DNA of 64,000 nucleotides from Eubacteriales bacterium (GCA_045596865.1 JAZODF010000003.1:15525-79524); one strand, 5' to 3'; counted from the stretch's first letter, positions 2,527 to 58,900 are shown. Program-made: numbers and translations. Notes: generated from the letters alone by a model not told the origin.

Positions 2527-5154
2527 ATGAAAAAGAGAATCATCTGTCTATTGCTTCTCGTGGCGATGTGTGCAAGCTGTGCCGTCGTTTTCACGGGCTG
2601 CAGGGGCAAAAACGGCGGAGATAAGACGAATCCCGACGCGCTCGTTATCATGACCGAGCAGCTCGACGGTCTGTTCAACCCCTTCTTCTCCACCTCCGCT
2701 ACCGACGGCACCATCGTCTCGATGACGCAGATCGGTATGCTCTCCTCCAAGTGCATCTACGACGCTAAGGGCAACGTAACCTCCGTCGAGGTCGCATTTG
2801 GCGATGACGAGGCGGTAGTAACCAAGGACTACCAGGTAACGCAGAATTCCGACGGCGATAACGTATATACCTTCGTTATCAAGAACGGCATCCTCTTCTC
2901 CGACGGTCACCCCCTGACCATCGAGGACGTGCTCTTCAACCTCTACCTCTATCTCGACCCCGTTTACACGGGCTCGGCAACCATCTACTCGACCGCCATC
3001 AAGGGCCTGAACGCGTACAGAAACCAGGACCCCGACGCGACCGAGGAGGATAACGACGACACCACCTCCGAGCAGGCGGCACAGAACGCATCCATGCGTA
3101 TTCTCGAGCTCGTTCAGCTTTACGAGACCGCCGCAGAGCAGAACGACGGCTCCTTCTACATCACCGTTGACGAGATGAAGGCGGCCATCGCAAACCACAC
3201 CCCCTCCTACGACTACATGGCGTCGATCATGACCTTCGACGAGATGGACGCGGACGGTGCCGAGGATAAGGCACGCGCACAGCTGCTTGCCGACTACGAG
3301 CAGGCGCTGAAGCTCTTTAACGAGGAGCTCTACACCGACTTTGAGAGCGCGAAGGACGCATACGTCGACGACGAGCGCTACGAGAAGTTCGAGGAGATCA
3401 AGAACGAGCTGTTCTGCTTCTTCCTTTACGAGGGCTACGTAACCATCGAGTACGAGAAGATCGCAGGCACCGACAAGGACGATAAGTCGAAGATCAAGGC
3501 CCTTCATCCCAACCTCGATATCAGCAAGTACACCACCAAGGACGCGGCGATCAAGCGCGTTTACGACGATATGATCGCAGAGTCGCTCTCCTCCATCCTC
3601 CTCTACTCTGTCAGCTCGTCCAAGCTGCTTAACGATTTCACCACGAAGGCAAAGGACGTCCTCCTCAAGAACCAGAGGGAGGGTGACGAGCTCGTCGTTC
3701 CCTCTATCTCGGGTATTCAGTCGCTCGGCCACAACGAGGCCACCAAGGGCAGCACCGTTACCGTTAACGGTAACGAGTACACCGTCGCATCCAACCACGA
3801 TGCAAACGGCGTGCCCACCGACGGCTACGACGTGTTGCAGATCACCATCGACGGCGTTGACCCCAAGGCACAGTGGAACTTTGCCTTCTCCGTCGCTCCC
3901 CAGCACTACTACGGCGAGGGTGCAAAGACCCCCGTTGACATTGAGAACAACAAGTTCGGCGTTGATTTTGGTGAGTTTGAATTTATGAAGGGCGTCGTTC
4001 AGTCCGTCCGTAACATCATGCTCCCGATGGGTGCGGGTCCCTACAAGGTAACCGACCGCGCTAACAGCGACAGCCCCGCAACCACCGACTTCTACACCTC
4101 GGGTATCGTTTACTTCAAGCGTAACGATAACTTCCACACCGTTGGCGAGAGCCTGAATAACGCGAAGATCGAGAAGGTCCGCTATCAGGTCGTTTCCGCC
4201 GCAAACTCCATCGGCGCGCTTCAGGAGGGCTCGGTGCACTACATCACCCCCCAGCTCACCAAGGAGAACGACGAGAAGCTGAAGAACATGGCCGCAAACG
4301 GCTACAACTCCATCAAGACCGACCAGCTTGGCTACGGTTACATCGGTATCAACGCAAGCCATATCCCCGACATCAATATCCGTAAGGCTATTATGTGCGC
4401 GATGAACACCTCGCTTGCCCTCGACTACTACACCCTCGATTCCGCGAGCCAGATCTACTGGCCGATGTCGAAGGTATCCTGGGCCTATCCCGACGGCTCG
4501 AGCGCGACCGACAACGGCAGGGATTACCCCCAGATCGACGAGCAGTGGAGCGAGTCCATTGCCATCGCAAATATCCAGAAGTATATGAGCCTTGCAGGCG
4601 TTTCCGCAGGTGACAGCGTGCTGTCCATCGAGTTCACCATCGCGGGCTCCAACCTTCAGGACCACCCCACCTACAAGGTATTCCGCGATGCGGCGGCGCT
4701 CCTCAACTCCCTCGGCTGGGATATCACGGTTGAGCCCGATACGCAGGCGTTGACCAAGATCAACACCGGCTCGCTCGCAGTATGGGCGGCGGCGTGGGGC
4801 TCCACCATCGACCCCGATATGTATCAGGTATATCACAAGAACTCCACCGCCACCTCGACCAAGGGCTGGGGCTACGACGAGATCAAGAGAAACGACGAGC
4901 AAAGAAAGATCCTCGACGAGCTCTCCGACCTTATCGACCAGGCGCGCGAGACCAACGATCAGGAGGTCCGCAAGGAGCTTTACGAGCTTGCAATGGGCAA
5001 GGTGCTCGACCTCGCGGTTGAGCTTCCCGTTTACCAGAGAAGCACGCTTTACGCCTACAACGCGAACGTAATCAAGGCAGAGAGCCTTCCCGAGGAGATC
5101 AACCCCTACTCCTCCCCCCTTGACAGAATCTGGGAGATCGAGTTCGCTAACTGA
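2527..5154 (+). CDS. ABC transporter substrate-binding lipoprotein, family 5 (Opp/Dpp type), unusually large (875 aa)
   Basis: Lipobox VFTGCRG. The N-terminal region has an SBP_bac_5-like motif (LDGLFNPFFSTSATDGTIVSMTQIGML). It heads an operon with two permeases and two ATPases. Confidence 0.8.
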   Translation: MKKRIICLLLLVAMCASCAVVFTGCRGKNGGDKTNPDALVIMTEQLDGLFNPFFSTSATDGTIVSMTQIGMLSSKCIYDAKGNVTSVEVAFGDDEAVVTKDYQVTQNSDGDNVYTFVIKNGILFSDGHPLTIEDVLFNLYLYLDPVYTGSATIYSTAIKGLNAYRNQDPDATEEDNDDTTSEQAAQNASMRILELVQLYETAAEQNDGSFYITVDEMKAAIANHTPSYDYMASIMTFDEMDADGAEDKARAQLLADYEQALKLFNEELYTDFESAKDAYVDDERYEKFEEIKNELFCFFLYEGYVTIEYEKIAGTDKDDKSKIKALHPNLDISKYTTKDAAIKRVYDDMIAESLSSILLYSVSSSKLLNDFTTKAKDVLLKNQREGDELVVPSISGIQSLGHNEATKGSTVTVNGNEYTVASNHDANGVPTDGYDVLQITIDGVDPKAQWNFAFSVAPQHYYGEGAKTPVDIENNKFGVDFGEFEFMKGVVQSVRNIMLPMGAGPYKVTDRANSDSPATTDFYTSGIVYFKRNDNFHTVGESLNNAKIEKVRYQVVSAANSIGALQEGSVHYITPQLTKENDEKLKNMAANGYNSIKTDQLGYGYIGINASHIPDINIRKAIMCAMNTSLALDYYTLDSASQIYWPMSKVSWAYPDGSSATDNGRDYPQIDEQWSESIAIANIQKYMSLAGVSAGDSVLSIEFTIAGSNLQDHPTYKVFRDAAALLNSLGWDITVEPDTQALTKINTGSLAVWAAAWGSTIDPDMYQVYHKNSTATSTKGWGYDEIKRNDEQRKILDELSDLIDQARETNDQEVRKELYELAMGKVLDLAVELPVYQRSTLYAYNANVIKAESLPEEINPYSSPLDRIWEIEFAN

Positions 5155-6160: not shown

Positions 6161-6169
6161 GGAGGCAGT

Positions 6170-7318
6170 ATGGAAGAAAAGAATATTCCCGAAATTTCCC
6201 CTGCCACCGAAGGTACCGAGGGCGTAAATACCACCGAGGCCGTCAGCACCTCCTCGAAGGACACCGAGGCACCGCTTGACAAGAACGTCAAGCTCCTCTC
6301 CCCGACGCAGATGGTGCTTCGCCGCTTCTTCCGCTCGCGTCTTAGTATCATCGGTCTTATTATGATCGTGTCGCTGTTTTTGTTCTCCTTCTTCGGCCCG
6401 CTGTTCTTTGCCGACAGGGGTGAGAAAAACGAGATGGGCGGCATCGTCTACGACCCGAACGACGGCAAGTGGGGCGAGATCGAGCTCGACGAATCGGGTC
6501 AGATCGAATACTCCACCACCGAGTACGAGATAATCGGCGAAAACGGCGAGAAGATCACCGTCCGCCAGACCGTTGAGCGTAAGCTCAAGGACAATTTCCT
6601 CGCACCCCCGTCCCGCGACCACATCCTCGGCACGGATAACGAGGGCTACGACATCTTCGTCCGCCTTATGTACGGTGGGCGTATATCCCTGACCGTCAGC
6701 TTCATCGCCGTTTTCGTTATCACCATTCTCGGCGTCGTGCTCGGCGGTGTTGCGGGCTACTTCGGCGGGGTTATCGACAACGTTATCATGCGTATTTGCG
6801 ATATCCTTATGTGCCTGCCGGGTATTCCGATCCTTCTCATCATCTCGACGCTTCTCGACGCGGCGGGCATCGATGCGAAGTACCGTATCTATTTACTTAT
6901 GATCTATCTGACCCTCTTCTCCTGGACGGGTACCGCCCGCCTCGTAAGAGGACAGATCCTCTCCCTGCGTGAGCAGGAGTACATGGTCGCCGCCGAGGCG
7001 ATGGGCTACTCCACCGCGCGAAAGATATTCAAGCACCTCGTGCCCAACGTAATGCCTCAGCTCATCGTGCAGATGACCCTCTCGCTCGGTAGTATGATCC
7101 TTTACGAGGCGACCCTCTCCTACCTCAATCTCGGAGTCAAGGCGCCCTACGCCGCATGGGGTACTATGATCAACATCATTTCCACCAACACCGACATCCT
7201 TCAGAACCACTTCAACGTCTGGGGACCCGCCGGTATCTGCATCGTTATTGCCGTGCTTGGCTTCAACTTCGTTGGCGACGGCCTGCGCGACGCGCTCGAC
7301 CCCAAGATGAGGAGATAA
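6170..7318 (+). CDS. ABC transporter permease (OppC/DppC-like) with N-terminal/extracytoplasmic extension
   Basis: REQEYMVAAEAMGYSTARKIFKHLVPN is OppC-like, and HILGTDNEGYDIF is a conserved OppC N-motif. About 100 extra residues precede it. Confidence 0.85.
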   Translation: MEEKNIPEISPATEGTEGVNTTEAVSTSSKDTEAPLDKNVKLLSPTQMVLRRFFRSRLSIIGLIMIVSLFLFSFFGPLFFADRGEKNEMGGIVYDPNDGKWGEIELDESGQIEYSTTEYEIIGENGEKITVRQTVERKLKDNFLAPPSRDHILGTDNEGYDIFVRLMYGGRISLTVSFIAVFVITILGVVLGGVAGYFGGVIDNVIMRICDILMCLPGIPILLIISTLLDAAGIDAKYRIYLLMIYLTLFSWTGTARLVRGQILSLREQEYMVAAEAMGYSTARKIFKHLVPNVMPQLIVQMTLSLGSMILYEATLSYLNLGVKAPYAAWGTMINIISTNTDILQNHFNVWGPAGICIVIAVLGFNFVGDGLRDALDPKMRR

Positions 7319-10359: not shown

Positions 10360-10550
10360 AAAAACCGCACCCTTTTTCGTAGGGACCGGCGTCCTTCATT
10401 ATTGTAGGGACCGGCGTCCTCGACGGTCCGTGACACAGCGGGATGCAAACAATTGCCATCGCCCGTGCGTGTAAGGCTCGGTTGCCCCTTGTTTTGCCTC
10501 GATTTTATTGCCTTGCTCGGCTCGGACCGTCAAGTTGCAATGCAACTTTC

Positions 10551-10606
10551 GGACGCACGGTCCCTACAAAAAATAGAAAAACACGGCTCATGTGAGCCGT
10601 GTTTTT
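10551..10606 (+). repeat. 56-bp direct repeat, left copy (contains terminator hairpin)
   Basis: GGACGCACGGTCCCTACAAAAAATAGAAAAACACGGCTCATGTGAGCCGTGTTTTT. It matches 12949-13004 at 54/56 positions. Confidence 0.9.
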
Positions 10607-30073: not shown

Positions 30074-30111
30074 GAGGACGGCTTGATTTCTCAAACCGCC
30101 CTGTTTTATTG

Positions 30112-30210
30112 GTGAAGGTTTTGCCTACGGCAAAAGTGAAGTTGTGCCGCAAGGCACAGTGAAGTTCGTGCTACGGCACGAGTGAAGTTGATTTTGCCCA
30201 CGGCAAAATC
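30112..30210. repeat. Hairpin array A: 4 variable stem-loops separated by constant (A)GTGAAGTT
   Basis: GTGAAG(G)TT occurs at 30112, 30136, 30159 and 30182, a period of 23-24 nt. The spacers are TTTTGCC-TAC-GGCAAAA, GTGCC-GCAA-GGCAC, CGTGC-TACG-GCACG and GATTTTGCC-CAC-GGCAAAATC. Confidence 0.9.
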
Positions 30211-41989: not shown

Positions 41990-43306
41990 TCATTTTACCC
42001 GAACGAGGCGGGCGATGAAGAAGCCGTCGGTGCCGTGGATATGCGGCAAGAGAGTTAGCATCCCCCCCTCCGACGAGAGGTCGCCGACGGTGAAATCGAC
42101 GGCGGCAAAGGAATCGTTTTCCGCGAGGAAGCGAAGGACGTTATCCCCGTTTTCGGCGGGGTTAAGCGTACAGGTGGAATAGACGAGCGTGCCGCCGACG
42201 CGGACGTAATTTGCCGACGTTTTCAGGATGTCGTACTGCAATTCGGGCAGGCGTTCCATCGTTTGTGCGGCGTTGTAGCGGAGGTCCGCCTTCTTGCCAA
42301 GGACGCCGAGGCCCGAGCAGGGGACGTCGCAGATAACGCGGTCAAATTTGCCGAAAAACTCGACACGGGGTACGGTTGCGTCGTTTTTATGTACGCTAAT
42401 GTTTACAATTCCGAGGCGGGCGGCGCCGCTCTCGATAAGCGGCAATTTGCTATCGTGAAGGTCACACGAGGTAACCGAGCCACCCTCACCCGCGAGGATT
42501 GCGGCGGCAAAGCTCTTGCCACCCGGGCAGGCACAGACGTCGAGCACAGAGTCACCGTGTGAGGTGCCGAGCACGCCCGCGCTGATGGCGCAGGAGAGGT
42601 CCTGTACGAAGAACATCCCCTCGTCAAAGCCGGGCAGAGAGCGCACGTCGCAGGAGCCGTCGATACGCAGGCTGATGGGTGAGAGGACAGAGGGTGTGGC
42701 GACGATCCCCTCCTTCGCAAAGAGGGCGACGAGTGCGTCGCGGGAGATTTTAGCGAGGTTGACCGTCAGGTCGGTGTAGCGCGCCGTATTAAAGGCGGAA
42801 AGGAGTGCCTCCGTCCCCTCCTCACCGAGGGTGGCGAGGAAATGGCGCACGAGCGCGATCGGGTAGGAATACGCCACCGAGAGGTGACGGGCAGGATTTT
42901 TCGCGCGGTCGGGCATAGGTAGCCCTTCCCCGTCGCGACGGCGGATAAGCGCGCGGAGGATGCCGTTGACGAAGCCGCGCTCGCCCTTGCCCCGTGCGAG
43001 GCCGACCGTTTCATTGACGGCGACGTGGTCGGGGACGCGGTCCATATACAAGAGCTGTGCCGCGCCGAGGCGGAGGATATTCAGGGTGTGTATATCAATT
43101 TTATCGGTGGGGCGCCCTGCGAGCGCGCCGATTATGTAGTCGAAGGTAAGCTTGTGCTCGACGGTTGTATAAAGCAGGGCGGTGACGAACCCCCGCTCCT
43201 CGCGCGAGATGCCGTCAAGGCGGTGCGAGGACAGCGAGAGGTTGACGTACTTGCCCTCGAGCTCGTATTCGTCGAGCAAAGCCAGCGCAAGCTGACGAGG
43301 GTTCAT
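41990..43306 (-). CDS. rsmB: 16S rRNA (cytosine967-C5)-methyltransferase RsmB
   Basis: NusB-like N-terminus, then DVCACPGGKS, DVPCSGLG and YSTCT motifs. Confidence 0.85.
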   Translation of the reverse strand: MNPRQLALALLDEYELEGKYVNLSLSSHRLDGISREERGFVTALLYTTVEHKLTFDYIIGALAGRPTDKIDIHTLNILRLGAAQLLYMDRVPDHVAVNETVGLARGKGERGFVNGILRALIRRRDGEGLPMPDRAKNPARHLSVAYSYPIALVRHFLATLGEEGTEALLSAFNTARYTDLTVNLAKISRDALVALFAKEGIVATPSVLSPISLRIDGSCDVRSLPGFDEGMFFVQDLSCAISAGVLGTSHGDSVLDVCACPGGKSFAAAILAGEGGSVTSCDLHDSKLPLIESGAARLGIVNISVHKNDATVPRVEFFGKFDRVICDVPCSGLGVLGKKADLRYNAAQTMERLPELQYDILKTSANYVRVGGTLVYSTCTLNPAENGDNVLRFLAENDSFAAVDFTVGDLSSEGGMLTLLPHIHGTDGFFIARLVRVK

Positions 43307-43376
43307 ATAGACTCCGTTTTGTTACCCGATTACGGGCAAGGTGTTTTTCCCGCCCGTGGATCGGGGCGTGGTTTTG

Positions 43377-43540
43377 GTGAAGTTTTTGCTATGCAAAAGT
43401 GAAGTTACTCACATTGTTCGTAGTGAAGTTTTGCTGCTTCGTACGCAAAGTGAAGTTAAGCTCGCCTAAAAGCACTCTTCACTTGCACCGCACGCGGTGC
43501 GGGCTTCACTGCGTACCAACCTCACCCGCCGTAGGCGAGC
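43377..43540. repeat. Hairpin array B: 4x GTGAAGTT + hairpins, then a long stem enclosing two inverted CTTCACT copies
   Basis: GTGAAGTT occurs at 43377, 43399, 43423 and 43450. AAGCTCGCC (43458-43466) pairs with GGCGAGCTT (43532-43540) around CTTCACT-t-GCACCGC-ac-GCGGTGC-ggg-CTTCACT. Confidence 0.9.
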
Positions 43541-43580
43541 TTAGTTATCGAGCGGACGTACCCTGCCGCTCGAGATTCGG

Positions 43581-44279
43581 TTATCTTCTCCTGTGCGAGA
43601 AGATGGAAAGCAGGCGAAGCAGCTGGATAAGCGAGACTGCGAGTGCGGCGACGTAGGTCATTGCCGCGGCGGAGAGCACGCGGCGGCAGGCGGAAAGCTC
43701 GCCCTTATTATACCAGCCCGTCAATTCAAGCTCGGTAAGAGCGCGGCGGGAGGCGTTGGTCTCGCACGGGAGGGTGACGAGGTGGAAGAGCGTGGTTGCG
43801 GCAAAGAGCACCACGCCGACAAAGAGGACGTAGGTGCCGAGCACCTCGGAAAACGCGAGGAGCAAAGAGCCGAGCAGGATTGCGATCCAAGAGAAGCGCG
43901 CGGCAAAATTCACCGCGGGGACGAGCTTCGAGCGGATGACGAGCGGCTTATACGCCGTGGCGTGCTGAATAGCGTGGCCAACCTCGTGTGCGGCGACGCC
44001 GACGGCGGCGGCGCTCGATGAGCCGTAAACCGTCTCGGACAGGCGAAGCACCCGCGAGCGGGGATCGTAATGGTCGGTGAGGTTGCCACCCACCCGCTCG
44101 ATACGCACGTCAAAGAGGCCGTGTGCGTCGAGGATACGGCGGGCGACGTCGGCGGCGGTATGCCCCCTGCCCGCGCTGACGCGGGAGTATTTTGAGAAGG
44201 TGGAGGACACCTTCACCTGCGCGACGACGGAAAATAGCAGCGCCGCGATAAACAGCCAATAGAGTAAATAGGGATTCAC
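43581..44279 (-). CDS. Membrane zinc metallopeptidase (YugP/Zn_peptidase_2 family)
   Basis: HEVGHAIQH zinc motif, with an N-terminal and two C-terminal TM helices. Confidence 0.8.
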   Translation of the reverse strand: MNPYLLYWLFIAALLFSVVAQVKVSSTFSKYSRVSAGRGHTAADVARRILDAHGLFDVRIERVGGNLTDHYDPRSRVLRLSETVYGSSSAAAVGVAAHEVGHAIQHATAYKPLVIRSKLVPAVNFAARFSWIAILLGSLLLAFSEVLGTYVLFVGVVLFAATTLFHLVTLPCETNASRRALTELELTGWYNKGELSACRRVLSAAAMTYVAALAVSLIQLLRLLSIFSHRRR

Positions 44280-55900: not shown

Positions 55901-58900
55901 GTCAACCTCGCAGGCGATCTTGCGGTCGCCGAGGTAGCCAAACTCGGAATAGCGTGCCACGGGAAGGAATCCGATGCGGGAGGCAATCGTGCTCGCGCCC
56001 GCGCCGATAACGTAGGCGGGGTTGCCTGCCATTTCGATGACGTTGTACGCGAGGTTACCAAGGGAGGTGACTATCCTTCCCTGCTCCTCATCACCGTCAA
56101 AGTATGCCGCCTGAATCTCGGTTGCGGCACCGTTTGCGGTGGGGGTCTCCTCGGTCCAGGAGGTGATGTCCTGCCACTCGTAGCCAAGGCGGCTGAGCTC
56201 GCCGACGGCGACCTCCTCGATGACGACCGCGAGCTTGACCTCGGTGACGCCCTCGAGGGCTATGGTCAGCCTCTTGTACTGCGAGCGGTCGTAGTTATCC
56301 TCGTGCGTGCCCGCCTCGTAATACTCCTGTGCGAGCTCATCCATGCCCTCGCAGGCGGCGAGGTGGAAGGTGTAGCAGTCCTCGATCTCGAACTTTGCAC
56401 CGCTGTTCGTTTTGTCAACGATGGTGACGCGGATGACGGTCTTGCCGTCGGTCATATACGCGACCGTGCCGTCGATGGAGAGGGCGACCTCTTGCTGAGT
56501 GTGGCCGACCCAATACGCGTTCTCGGGCGACATGAACTCGACCTCGTCCTGAATTACGACGGTGCGGCGGTCGTTAGTAAAGAGCATGCCGCGATATGCG
56601 TAATTTGCATACCCGCCGTAGGCGGAGGTGTTGTCGATGATGGCGTACGCACCGTGATCGTTGTCCGCGTTTTCGATAATTTTGCCGAAGCCGTTGAGTG
56701 CCTGACCGTAGGGGACGGCGTCGCGGCTGTTGATGAAGAGGGTGTTGTTACCCTCGGCGCTCATCTTATAGTAGCGGTATCTGGTGGCGCCGCCCCAGAA
56801 GCCGTAGCAGTTGTAGTTCTCGGTACCCGTGTCACAGAACCAGACCGTGCCGCCGTTGTGGTAGACGAAGGAGCCCGAGTCGATCTGTCCGTGGCCGAGG
56901 TTGTTGGTGTCGCCCATAATGCCCGCGTAGATCGCGCCCGACTCCCAGGAGTCACGCATTACGTAGCCGTTGATGCCCTCCCACCAATTCTGCAGGGGCG
57001 GCATCTTAATTTCCTCGGTGACCTTTTTATAGAACAGGACGTCCTGGATGGTGGCCGAGCCGCTCTTGCCCGAGGCGAGGGCGATGTTTCGTATCTCGGC
57101 GAGGTCGGTCTTGCCCGTGAAGTTGCCGTAGTAGGGGAACCAGGAGGTGTCCTGCGCGCCAACCGAGCCTCCGCCGGAGTCGTGGTAGTTGAAGCTGTTA
57201 TAGTCGCTCGACTGCGTATTGAGGGCGTAGTAGCAGGTGCGGTCGATGCCCCACGCGTCAAGCATGCCGAAATCGTTTGCCGTGCCGGTGTTGTACTCGG
57301 TCGCGGTGGTGAGCGCGGCACACATCTCGAAGAAGTTGTTGGTGCCGTAGGACCAATATCCGCTCGACTCGATATAGGAGCCGTCGGGGATGTACTGATT
57401 GAGTCCCTTCATCGCCATGCCGTAGAGGCACTCGTTAATAAGCCACTCGGCATAGTCCTGATAGGTGGTGAAGCCCGTGTGGTCGCCGAGGGCGCTGACG
57501 AGCTGACCCTGCTCGAAGGGAGTTGTGTTTACGTTGGTGTCAATGTAGATGGATGCGGAGGACGTCGTCTTACCAACGATGGCAAGCGAGGCGAGCACCA
57601 TACCCGAGGAGCAGACCGCGTTCCAGTTGTTAGTGCCCGAGAAGCCCCAACCGCTCTTGGTCAATACACCGCTGATATAGCGCATCCATCCCTCGGGGAT
57701 GGTGTTGAATTTACGCGAGTAGAAGCCGGGGATAACGCCGTGGGTGAAGATGATCTGTTCGATCTTTGCGACGTCGTAGCCGAGGGTCACCCAAGCATCG
57801 TAGAGCCAGTCGAACGCGATGGAATAGGGTCCCGCCGCGTCGGCACAGTTGAGGAAATGACCCGGTCCCCAATGCTCCCAGCCGCCGATGGCGACGGCGT
57901 AATCGTAGGCGAGCATCGCGTATTTCATATCGCGGGTGATCTGGTAGCCGAAGGCGAGCGACATGATATTGTTCGCGTGGGTGGTCGCCTGGCTATGACG
58001 GCCGCCGATGTCATAGCCCTGCGCGTCCTGATAGGGCATGGAATAAAGGTCCTTCTGCCCGGGGCCAAGGCCCTTCAGGGAATTGAGCGAGGAGTAGGAG
58101 CCGCCCGAGGTAATAGCGTAGCTGGTATAAACCGAGTCGGCGGCGTTTACGCGGTTCTGGATATAGCCCTTAAGGACGGGGTCGGCGGTGCCGTTTTGGT
58201 CGAGGTAGACCGCGCGCAGCTCGTCAAACTTATCCTGATCTGCGAGGATGTAGGGGTGGTCGAGATACTGTCCCGATGCGGCGGAGAATGCCTCGACCTT
58301 GTTAAGCGAGGTGTCAACGTGGTCGAAGAGGAATTTCTGCATTATCGGGATAAGCGACTCGTCCGCGGCATCCTCGACAAAGACGTTCTGCTTTTCGGAG
58401 ATGGCGACGAGTCCCGCCGAGTAATAGGAGCCGTAATAGCCCGGGAAGGCGAGCGAAATATCGCGATAATTGATACACGGGGTGCCACTTACGGTATATT
58501 TCGGGGCGGATGCGGCAACCGTGCCGATGACCTGCTCGAGGGCGGAAACGGGGAACCAAAGCTCGCCCGCGTCATCGGTAAACGGCTTCTCACCGAGGGT
58601 GTAGACGGTGGTGCCGTTCTTATCAAGCGCCTTGTCAACGTTCATCTTGAAATAGTAGTTGTCAAGGTACTGGTCGGCGGGTACGTAGGCACCCGCGTTG
58701 CCGTTAAAGAGCTGACCGCGATTGGTGGAGGAATGCTCGGCCGAGAGGGCGACGGCGGGGTCGGTGGTGTCCGAAACGTACAGCTCGAGGTCGTCGAGGT
58801 CCCAGGAGAGATTGGTGCCCGTGTTGACCTGGAAGCGGAAGTAGCAGGGGCGTGCATCGACACCGTAGGATTTGAGGGTGGAGGTCGCCGTGGGGCTGCT

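Follow-up and report, generated by a model that had tools for sequence, protein, structure and literature searches.

A gene-less, partly degenerate copy of an extended Gut-1 element between a peptidase gene and rsmB in an Eubacteriales operon

We analysed a 64,000-nt stretch of the genome of an Eubacteriales bacterium (GCA_045596865.1, JAZODF010000003.1:15525-79524), here called the window, in which an array of a repeated word, array B, lies inside an operon and forms part of a composite element of the Gut-1 type. All genes around array B are on the minus strand, in the order priA-def-fmt-peptidase-rsmB-rlmN, and the GC skew of the window is positive on the plus strand. The PF04298 zinc peptidase gene occupies positions 43581–44279, with fmt, def, and priA next to it, and rsmB occupies positions 41990–43306. 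The gap between the peptidase stop codon and the rsmB start (43307–43580) measures 274 bp, and the initial annotation of the window was correct in regarding it as unusually long, the corresponding gaps in five relatives being 16, 46, 58, 84, and 101 nt. A motif scan of the window found GTGAAGTT on the plus strand at 43377, 43399, 43423, and 43450, exactly as first described, and the three spacers between these copies are hairpins. The window contains nine copies of GTGAAGTT against an expected 1.20, and nine or more were reached in 0 of 100 shuffles. Three further copies, at 30136, 30159, and 30182, form a second cluster, array A. No hairpin adjoins the solitary copies of GTGAAGTT at 57117 and 60505, which chance could explain. 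At 10528 and 60743, the AAGTTGC palindromes form simple hairpins, and their relation to the element is uncertain. Inverted copies of the word (CTTCACT on the plus strand, AGTGAAG on the minus strand), at 43477–43483 and 43504–43510, flank a hairpin, as had been noted. A search of the window for tRNA and tmRNA genes gave no hit.

Read on the minus strand, which is the sense strand of the operon, the whole element extends over approximately 197 nt (43573 to 43377), and its parts stand in the same order as in 67 distinct composites of the family described below, in which a 7-nt word, GUGAAGU, is followed by its complement, the anti-word ACUUCAC. The element opens with P0, an 8-bp hairpin (TCGAGCGG / CCGCTCGA, 43548–43573) that is predicted in both the RNA and the DNA folds, lies 8 nt past the peptidase stop codon, and has no U tract. 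Next comes the AACUAAG box, a degenerate word W0 with the sequence AACTAAGC (43539–43546; family consensus AACUAAGU), most positions of which are invariant in an alignment of 16 composites (A2). The closing stem, P1, is formed by a 5' arm, TAAGCTCGCC (43534–43543), and a 3' arm, GGCGAGCTTA (43457–43466), which are exact reverse complements; its sequence is CUCGCC/GGCGAG where the consensus is UUUGCC/GGCAAA, and the 3' arm terminates in a degenerate anti-word, ACUUA. The long-range stem proposed earlier exists, but it has 10 rather than 9 bp, and its second arm had been placed 2 nt off, at 43532–43540. The local hairpin H0 (CUCGCC-UAC-GGCGGG, 43525–43539) and P1 are mutually exclusive because both use the same 5' bases.

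The three words that follow in the first half each differ from GTGAAGT by one substitution: W1, GTGAGGT (43519–43525), read from the sequence like H0; W2, GTGAAGC (43503–43509); and W3, GTGAAGA (43476–43482). The hairpin preceding W2, H1 (UGGUACGCA), is broken relative to that of another locus, L057 (UGCUACGCA; compared loci are designated by L numbers), H2 (GCACCG-CGTG-CGGTGC, 43485–43500) is intact, and no H3 follows W3. The second half consists of four perfect ACTTCAC anti-words (43450–43456, 43423–43429, 43399–43405, and 43377–43383; total span 43377–43456) separated by the hairpins K1 (43430–43449), K2 (43406–43422, with a tandem G·A pair), and K3 (43384–43398), which, like H0, are intact. 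With none of its three words perfect, H1 broken, and H3 missing, the first half is among the most degenerate of those observed, and this copy is probably no more than a passenger in decay. Array B is the 3' half of the composite, and its plus-strand reading is the reverse complement of that half; what had been seen as inverted motif copies inside a larger stem is the degenerate first half, which P1 encloses. The choice of the plus-strand array as primary was accordingly reversed, the orientation of the family being that of the minus strand, and the extent first assigned covers array B but not the continuation to P0 at 43548–43573. Because both strands read a GTGAAGT array and then an ACTTCAC array, the element is two-fold symmetric. 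It lies 70 nt upstream of the rsmB start; the intervening spacer (43307–43376, minus strand) contains two more hairpins and then the Shine-Dalgarno sequence GGAG. On the plus strand of this spacer, at 43351–43376, a terminator-like hairpin, CGCCCGTGGATCGGGGCG (43351–43368), is followed by TGGTTTTGG directly 5' of the plus-strand array. Approximately 55 nt of the spacer, including this hairpin, matched none of the other loci compared.

We searched for the same pattern in one genome per species and also in metagenomes and viral contigs. Approximately two-thirds of the 120 metagenome matches were eukaryote-like simple repeats and were discarded. The genome scan returned many metagenome-assembled genomes of Clostridia, assigned to Oscillospiraceae, Acutalibacteraceae, Christensenellaceae, and "Eubacteriales", and the composite recurred as 67 distinct copies in Clostridia genomes and metagenomes. 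Its first half comprises P0, the AACUAAGU box, H0, and three units of GUGAAGU plus a hairpin of approximately 11 nt; its second half comprises GGCAAACUUA, three units of ACUUCAC plus a hairpin of 9–21 nt, and a last ACUUCAC. The closing stem P1 pairs UAAGUUUGCC with GGCAAACUUA. A long hairpin of the P0 type, variable in sequence, adjoins the AACTAAGT box in the majority of displayed composites and is absent where this box overlaps the stop codon of a methyltransferase gene; it is terminator-like in L003, L098, and L262 but not in the window. A phage origin was considered and rejected, since only one of 119 pattern matches on viral contigs (L158) was a true word-hairpin array.

The family corresponds to Gut-1, which has been classed as a non-coding RNA (ncRNA) not affiliated with mRNA (Weinberg et al. 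2010, PMC2864571). A permissive Rfam scan of the window matched Gut-1 (RF01706) on the plus strand at 43375–43461 with 26.5 bits (E-value 0.002–0.004), about half the gathering threshold of 50, and no other Rfam family matched the array B region at E ≤ 10. On the minus strand, the first half of the window copy gave no match to the Gut-1 model at E ≤ 10. The first halves of two related composites, L073a and L073b, scored 52 and 51 bits, respectively, and therefore pass the threshold, in the orientation that corresponds to the minus strand of the window. Furthermore, the flanks of Gut-1 seed sequences hold the same composite (GUGAUAU...AUAUCAC in BAAZ01000095 and GUGAAAU...AUUUCAC in BAAV01002358), and the 77-nt Rfam model spans only its first half. 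The sub-threshold plus-strand match is thus a by-product of the two-fold symmetry of the element. Array B represents a partly degenerate orphan (gene-less) copy of a dispersed modular element that extends the Gut-1 motif. Over 88 nt, the second half of this copy shares 92% identity with the matching part of L073a, a copy linked to a gene, and over 50 nt its 5' part shares 90% identity with L057.

Copy density is two per 64 kb in the window and two per 8 kb in L073, L012, L117, and L262; two composites lie 240 nt apart in L358, and several word classes co-occur on one contig. Reduced forms lacking the word half also exist (array A, L275, and L337). In L114 (2358–2960), a GTGAAGT array adjoins at least 20 tandem ATATCAC-plus-hairpin units organised in a 68-nt super-repeat of three units. 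Such arrays are able to expand like minisatellites, and different word classes are able to abut.

The hairpins are conserved as structures rather than as sequences. In alignment A2, the local hairpins were 91.7% paired compared with 79% in shuffled alignments, and both sides had changed in 12 of 21 pairs; 0 of 500 shuffles reached these values. H0 was 94.5% paired and P1 98.3% paired, with three P1 pairs changed on both sides. The K and H hairpins of the 67 elements took 145 and 64 distinct forms, respectively, and an outer stem of at least 4 bp was present in 68% and 67% of them, against 11% and 8% in chimeric controls. As in Gut-1, therefore, three or more tandem hairpins occur with covariation support. 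The words form four complementary classes, GUGAAGU/ACUUCAC, GUGAAAU/AUUUCAC, GUGAUAU/AUAUCAC, and UCGAUAU/AUAUCGA, the last found in L085 and L158, and L262 carries (G/A)UGAAAU/AUUUCA(C/U). The box varies with the word class (UAAAU in L262 and UAUAU in the Gut-1 seeds). Adjacent arrays were complementary in 83 of 101 pairs; exceptions are L114 and L115, as well as GUGAAGC words in L316, L321, and L359. The linkers of the window copy (GUGAGGU, GUGAAGC, and GUGAAGA) differ from the GUGAAAU of Gut-1, although the seed alignment itself holds GUGAUAU variants.

The window element folds with −74.8 kcal/mol as RNA (z = −3.6) and −42.8 kcal/mol as DNA (z = −3.8), and L073a with −94.5 kcal/mol as RNA (z = −8.9), its words being paired. 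When the structures of L073a were evaluated separately, the hairpins alone gave −25.6 kcal/mol, the hairpins with P1 −29.2 kcal/mol, and the word/anti-word ladder −46.5 kcal/mol; the unconstrained minimum in the same evaluation (−70.2 kcal/mol) was a long imperfect hairpin joining both halves.

A comparison of orthologous peptidase-rsmB junctions, the empty-site test suggested by the initial annotation, showed that the insert is absent from all five relatives. The closest, L121, has a peptidase 98% identical and flanking genes with 96.4% and 94.6% nucleotide identity to those of the window, and its spacer is 58 nt long. In the others, the peptidase identity and spacer length are 88% and 16 nt (L372), 83% and 46 nt (L373), 81% and 84 nt (L122/L123), and 80% and 101 nt (L124). 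These empty sites indicate a lineage-specific gain, as with miniature inverted-repeat transposable elements (MITEs), which likewise leave empty sites in close relatives: the window copy entered the interval from the peptidase stop codon to the ribosome-binding site of rsmB. The spacers of the window and L121 have in common only the stop codon and the last approximately 13 nt (aacggagtctat) before the rsmB ATG. The whole spacer differs between the filled and empty sites, and terminal inverted repeats with a target-site duplication were not recognisable.

A proportion of the composites is closely linked to genes of the PF05635 four-helix-bundle family. Among 54 distinct composites with enough downstream sequence, 15 were followed by a PF05635/TIGR02436 gene or its remnant on the same strand, 11–60 nt past the last anti-word, and the linked fraction was about a quarter in the metagenome set, which had been retrieved without reference to the gene. 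In the reverse test, in which PF05635 homologues were picked by protein similarity and by the length of their contigs only, a composite ended 19–35 nt before the start codon for four of four homologues, in seven places. The window copy precedes rsmB instead, and no PF05635 homologue was found in the 64 kb. Composites of two other word classes also precede PF05635 genes. The order PF05958 U5-methyltransferase, composite, PF05635 was found in L073 (1–1050) and in L365, L369, L370, and L371 (approximately 130–1860), with the methyltransferase stop codon inside the AACTAAGT box in most reverse-test loci, and the element is kept at this locus across species whose proteins are 83–97% identical. PF05635 is annotated as "23S rRNA intervening sequence protein", its closest solved structure is 2RLD, an entry with five chains, and Avd of diversity-generating retroelements (DGRs) is a homologue (PMC10053308). 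Our literature searches found nothing relevant on PF05635 function, no connection of Gut-1 with PF05635, and no description of a composite in two halves. Apart from PF05635, the genes flanking the composites vary widely (76 neighbours with 89 Pfam families between them), and transposases or nucleases were not enriched among these 76 proteins in the Pfam search, helix-turn-helix and T5orf172 domains occurring in only two to four.

PF05635 pseudogenes or precise losses of the open reading frame (ORF) were seen in L050, L262, L339, L073b, and L085a, indicating how orphan copies arise. Orphans were not clearly more decayed than linked copies: 6 of 27 orphan matches, among them L256, which is not a true element, lacked a perfect word compared with 0 of 15 linked copies, a weak trend only, most orphans being intact. 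Several other features of these loci were observed. A segment of approximately 50 nt, GGACAAATGTTGCTTTCGAGCAAAACTTGAAAGTTCGTTTTACAGCAG, stands directly after the PF05635 stop codon or after a gene-less composite and marks precise ORF loss (L085 2015–1965 minus, L073 3290–3340, and L085 approximately 1060–1010 minus). In L266 (approximately 1555–1640), a partial second word half (GTTTGCC..GGCAA, GTGAAGT three times) lies past the PF05635 stop codon, so that the anti-word array and gene are bracketed by direct repeats of the word half. L284 and L360 have the order composite, PF05635, methyltransferase, and the window copy too adjoins rRNA methyltransferase genes (rsmB and rlmN), which may be a coincidence. 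In three loci (L073 1061–1960, L057, and L369 1868–2542), a T5orf172 (GIY-YIG-like) gene directly follows PF05635, and the L073 protein has an N-terminal helix-turn-helix domain; the T5orf172 protein could be a nuclease partner, although not a general one. The L073 PF05635 protein has 7890 homologues at E ≤ 1e−10, in clusters of up to more than 700 members, most of them on contigs shorter than 3 kb, as expected of a multi-copy sequence that breaks assemblies.

Which strand functions, and whether as DNA or RNA, was addressed from several sides. No promoter-like site on either strand and no minus-strand intrinsic terminator (hairpin plus U tract) was found at 43200–43700, suggesting that the operon mRNA includes the element. 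A free-standing ncRNA gene does not match these features: the window copy sits within an operon, and the family has many copies, which frequently border stop and start codons. The minus strand is distinguished by several asymmetric features, namely the AACUAAGU/P0 end, the lengths of the hairpins, the G·U pairs in P1 of L110 and L073b, and the tandem G·A pair of K2 (UAC-GA-AC...GU-GA-GUA). The attempt to fix the functional strand from G·U and A·C counts was uninformative. The stems are nearly all Watson-Crick, with G·U in 18 of 676 pairs of the K hairpins and 5 of 235 of the H hairpins (2–3% of pairs), and A·C mismatches are as frequent. Gene orientation was likewise of little help; convergent and divergent contexts say nothing about it because of the symmetry, and single arrays in tandem-gene contexts were split 3 to 3, too few to decide.

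Taken together, we hold with moderate confidence that array B belongs to an orphan Gut-1-type element that was gained in this lineage and acts as a co-transcribed, structured intercistronic module, a view whose weight lies mostly in the identity and history of the element and less in its mechanism. Within the operon mRNA, the element would fold into an array of stable hairpins, and its two halves may zip via word/anti-word helices into a ladder of four-way junctions or a long imperfect hairpin, in competition with the P1 and H0 pairings. Standing between the cistrons, the resulting block could be a structural barrier or a site of processing, so that the mRNA segments on its two sides would no longer share one fate, as with repetitive extragenic palindromic (REP) sequences and bacterial interspersed mosaic elements (BIMEs), and the native context between the U5-methyltransferase and four-helix-bundle genes would be comparable. 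As the first half is decaying, with 0 of 3 words perfect and H1 broken, the effect at this locus may be small. A number of observations weigh against this interpretation. The rarity of G·U, equal to that of A·C, means that there is no strand-specific RNA signature. The loops of the two halves are reverse complements (UUC, UGC, and UAC in the first half; GAA, GCA, GUA, and GNRA-type tetraloops such as GUAA and GCAA in the second), which fits an inverted doublet of DNA equally well. In tandem-gene contexts, composites were co-oriented with the upstream gene in seven cases and opposed in two, which is not significant. L114 and L115 place non-complementary word classes side by side, and the reduced forms show that word/anti-word pairing is not essential. 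A consensus promoter separates the element from the PF05635 gene in L259 and L358, so that the PF05635 mRNA does not always include the element. The role at the RNA level is one that we infer.

The main alternative, possible though less likely, is that the family is a selfish DNA repeat similar to MITEs or to hairpin-forming REP doublets (REPINs), in which a putative nuclease or recombinase would recognise, on single-stranded DNA, the unit of ACTTCAC and a C-GNA-G mini-hairpin. The composite would then be an inverted doublet of two arrays, and its RNA structure a by-product. As in a REPIN, the inverted doublet forms a long hairpin whose halves carry complementary words and loops, the pseudo-palindromic architecture gives the same reading on both strands, and GNA triloops lie on the 3' half of each strand. 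Single hairpins recur elsewhere in reverse complement (H1 of L008 and a K hairpin of L012/L030), and G·U pairs are almost lacking in the stems. The distribution of the copies points in the same direction: present here and absent at 95–96% nucleotide identity, several per 8–64 kb, expanded in tandem in L114 and L358, with near-identical halves at unrelated loci and a preference for convergent intergenic regions and gene 3' ends. The many PF05635 homologues on contigs shorter than 3 kb would also be typical of assembly-breaking repeats. However, transposases and nucleases are not enriched among the 76 neighbours, the insertion shows no target-site duplication or clean boundaries, and the hairpin sequences diverge while the structure is kept, whereas REPs keep a conserved palindrome. 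The retention of the element at the orthologous methyltransferase/PF05635 locus across species argues for selection. The REP/MITE-like character favoured for the arrays in the initial annotation stands in part: the elements are multi-copy, dispersed, two-fold symmetric, and associated with empty sites, but a conserved palindrome and an associated transposase are wanting.

A bolder proposal, which we regard as rather unlikely, is that Gut-1 is one half of a word/anti-word ladder that is the dedicated partner of PF05635 proteins outside DGRs, the whole being a small mobile or self-propagating module that seeds orphan arrays, such as the one in the window, into operons. If true, the approximately five word units per half could match a pentameric protein, and there would be a first functional handle on an RNA motif that has been an orphan for 16 years and on a protein family of very large size. 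More improbable in our estimation is a multivalent platform of RNA or DNA words that binds an oligomeric PF05635 protein for autoregulation or ribonucleoprotein assembly, with some five word-like units per half, and with orphan copies that titrate or recruit the protein elsewhere. The linkage in both directions, at a fixed orientation and distance and in three word classes, would be explained, as would words that stay invariant while hairpins drift. The five chains of 2RLD and the homology with Avd, a pentamer that binds RNA and reverse transcriptase, also agree with such a platform. Nevertheless, the PF05635 proteins are near neutral (isoelectric point 6.7–7.7), unlike the basic Avd, their clades do not map simply to word classes, and approximately 70% of copies, including those of the 64-kb window, have no PF05635 gene nearby; moreover, a protein that binds the single-stranded word would not also bind its complement. 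GUGAAGU also equals positions 1489–1495 of 16S rRNA, the A-site strand, but probably by coincidence, since neither the AUAUCAC nor the AUAUCGA class fits.

An independent plus-strand small RNA (sRNA) gene, antisense to the operon, is what the Gut-1 match of 26.5 bits and the ncRNA class of Weinberg et al. would suggest, but we consider it very improbable. The score is half the gathering threshold, the match is to the reverse complement of the anti-word half while the copies that pass match the other half on the other strand, no plus-strand promoter is present, the sole plus-strand terminator-like site lies upstream of the array, and the tandem G·A pair of K2 and the GNA/GNRA loops of K1–K3 are favourable on the minus strand only. 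Finally, a gene-specific cis-regulator (riboswitch, attenuator, or leader) of rsmB/rlmN, compatible with a site 70 nt upstream of the rsmB start and with the alternative H0/P1 pairings, is hardly credible, being contradicted by the empty junctions in five of five relatives, the diverse neighbour genes of the family, and a sense strand without a terminator or a helix sequestering the Shine-Dalgarno sequence.

The window contains further repeats and structured RNAs. Array A (30101–30210, minus strand) is a reduced relative of the array B element, and the initial annotation had rightly placed both in one family, the word and the word-plus-hairpin unit being common to the two. It consists of a P1-like hairpin, GATTTTGCC-gtg-GGCAAAATC, followed by four A(A/C)CTTCAC words and three hairpins; the word half is lacking, and P1 is kept as a simple hairpin (GAUUUUGCC-GUG-GGCAAAAUC in RNA). 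Its Gut-1 score is 14.7 bits, and it is followed on the minus strand by a terminator (30102–30075) and then a promoter-like site (30073–30045). The only Rfam family above its gathering threshold in the window is the L10 leader (RF00557; 39461–39622, minus strand, 46.6 bits against a threshold of 44). Another hairpin repeat, GGACCG...CGGTCC, occurs in the window at 10516–10560, where it encloses AAGTTGC-aat-GCAACTT, in L051 at 4339–4453 as five tandem units with TGTAATC linkers, and in L158 at approximately 6165–6210, and it looks like a second repeat family of these Clostridia.

Gut-1 has been in Rfam since 2010 as a 77-nt model without a function or a cultured host. What appears to be new is that this motif makes up one half of a composite whose 7-nt words and anti-words vary in concert, and that it is not a single sRNA gene but a multi-copy element, polymorphic in its presence or absence, of Oscillospiraceae, Acutalibacteraceae, Christensenellaceae, and related Clostridia. 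The close link of Gut-1 to PF05635, a family known from 23S rRNA intervening sequences and from Avd of DGRs, also appears to be new and opens a tractable test for RNA or DNA partners of Avd-like proteins beyond DGRs. The element may also be the counterpart of the REP/REPIN systems in Firmicutes. For annotation, arrays within operons should not be called antisense sRNAs from sub-threshold Rfam matches.

Among known systems, protein-sponge sRNAs (RsmY/RsmZ and CrcZ) resemble the composites in the repetition of short single-stranded motifs between hairpins. However, each of those is encoded by one single-copy gene that has a promoter and a terminator of its own, and the protein partner is known, whereas the composites occur in many copies, carry the complementary anti-array in cis, and have no known partner. 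DGRs share a PF05635 homologue, Avd, that acts with a structured RNA; no reverse transcriptase was present among the called neighbour genes, and template and variable repeats were not searched for. The 23S rRNA intervening sequences of Leptospira and Coxiella combine a PF05635 ORF with an extended stem-loop and appear mobile or sporadic, but they lie inside rRNA helices and are excised by RNase III, whereas the composites are intergenic, with the gene downstream of the structure and no involvement of rRNA.

REP, BIME, and REPIN sequences of Proteobacteria are likewise short, multi-copy, hairpin-forming intergenic repeats, often arranged as inverted doublets, situated after stop codons or between convergent genes, and present or absent at the strain level. 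When transcribed, REPs and BIMEs act as mRNA stabilisers or barriers. They differ in having a conserved imperfect palindrome of approximately 35 nt with a GTAG-type foot and a REP-associated tyrosine transposase (RAYT), whereas the elements described here, from a Clostridia host, conserve only the 7-nt word, with variable stems in ordered arrays. No RAYT (Y1 HUH transposase) was found among the 76 flanking genes, whole genomes not having been scanned, and we found nothing relevant in the literature on REPs or RAYTs in Clostridia. The closest likeness is to Gut-1 itself, which shares the tandem covarying hairpins, the GUGAnnU linkers, a first hairpin of the UUUGCC..GGGCAA type, and an occurrence in gut and rumen Clostridia; the L073 relatives pass its Rfam threshold, and its seed flanks show the two-half composite. 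The differences are that the word here is GUGAAGU/ACUUCAC rather than GUGAAAU, that the window copy scores 26.5 bits against the threshold of 50, and only on the reverse complement of its second half, and that the label "sRNA gene" does not suit a multi-copy element found in operons and before PF05635 genes.

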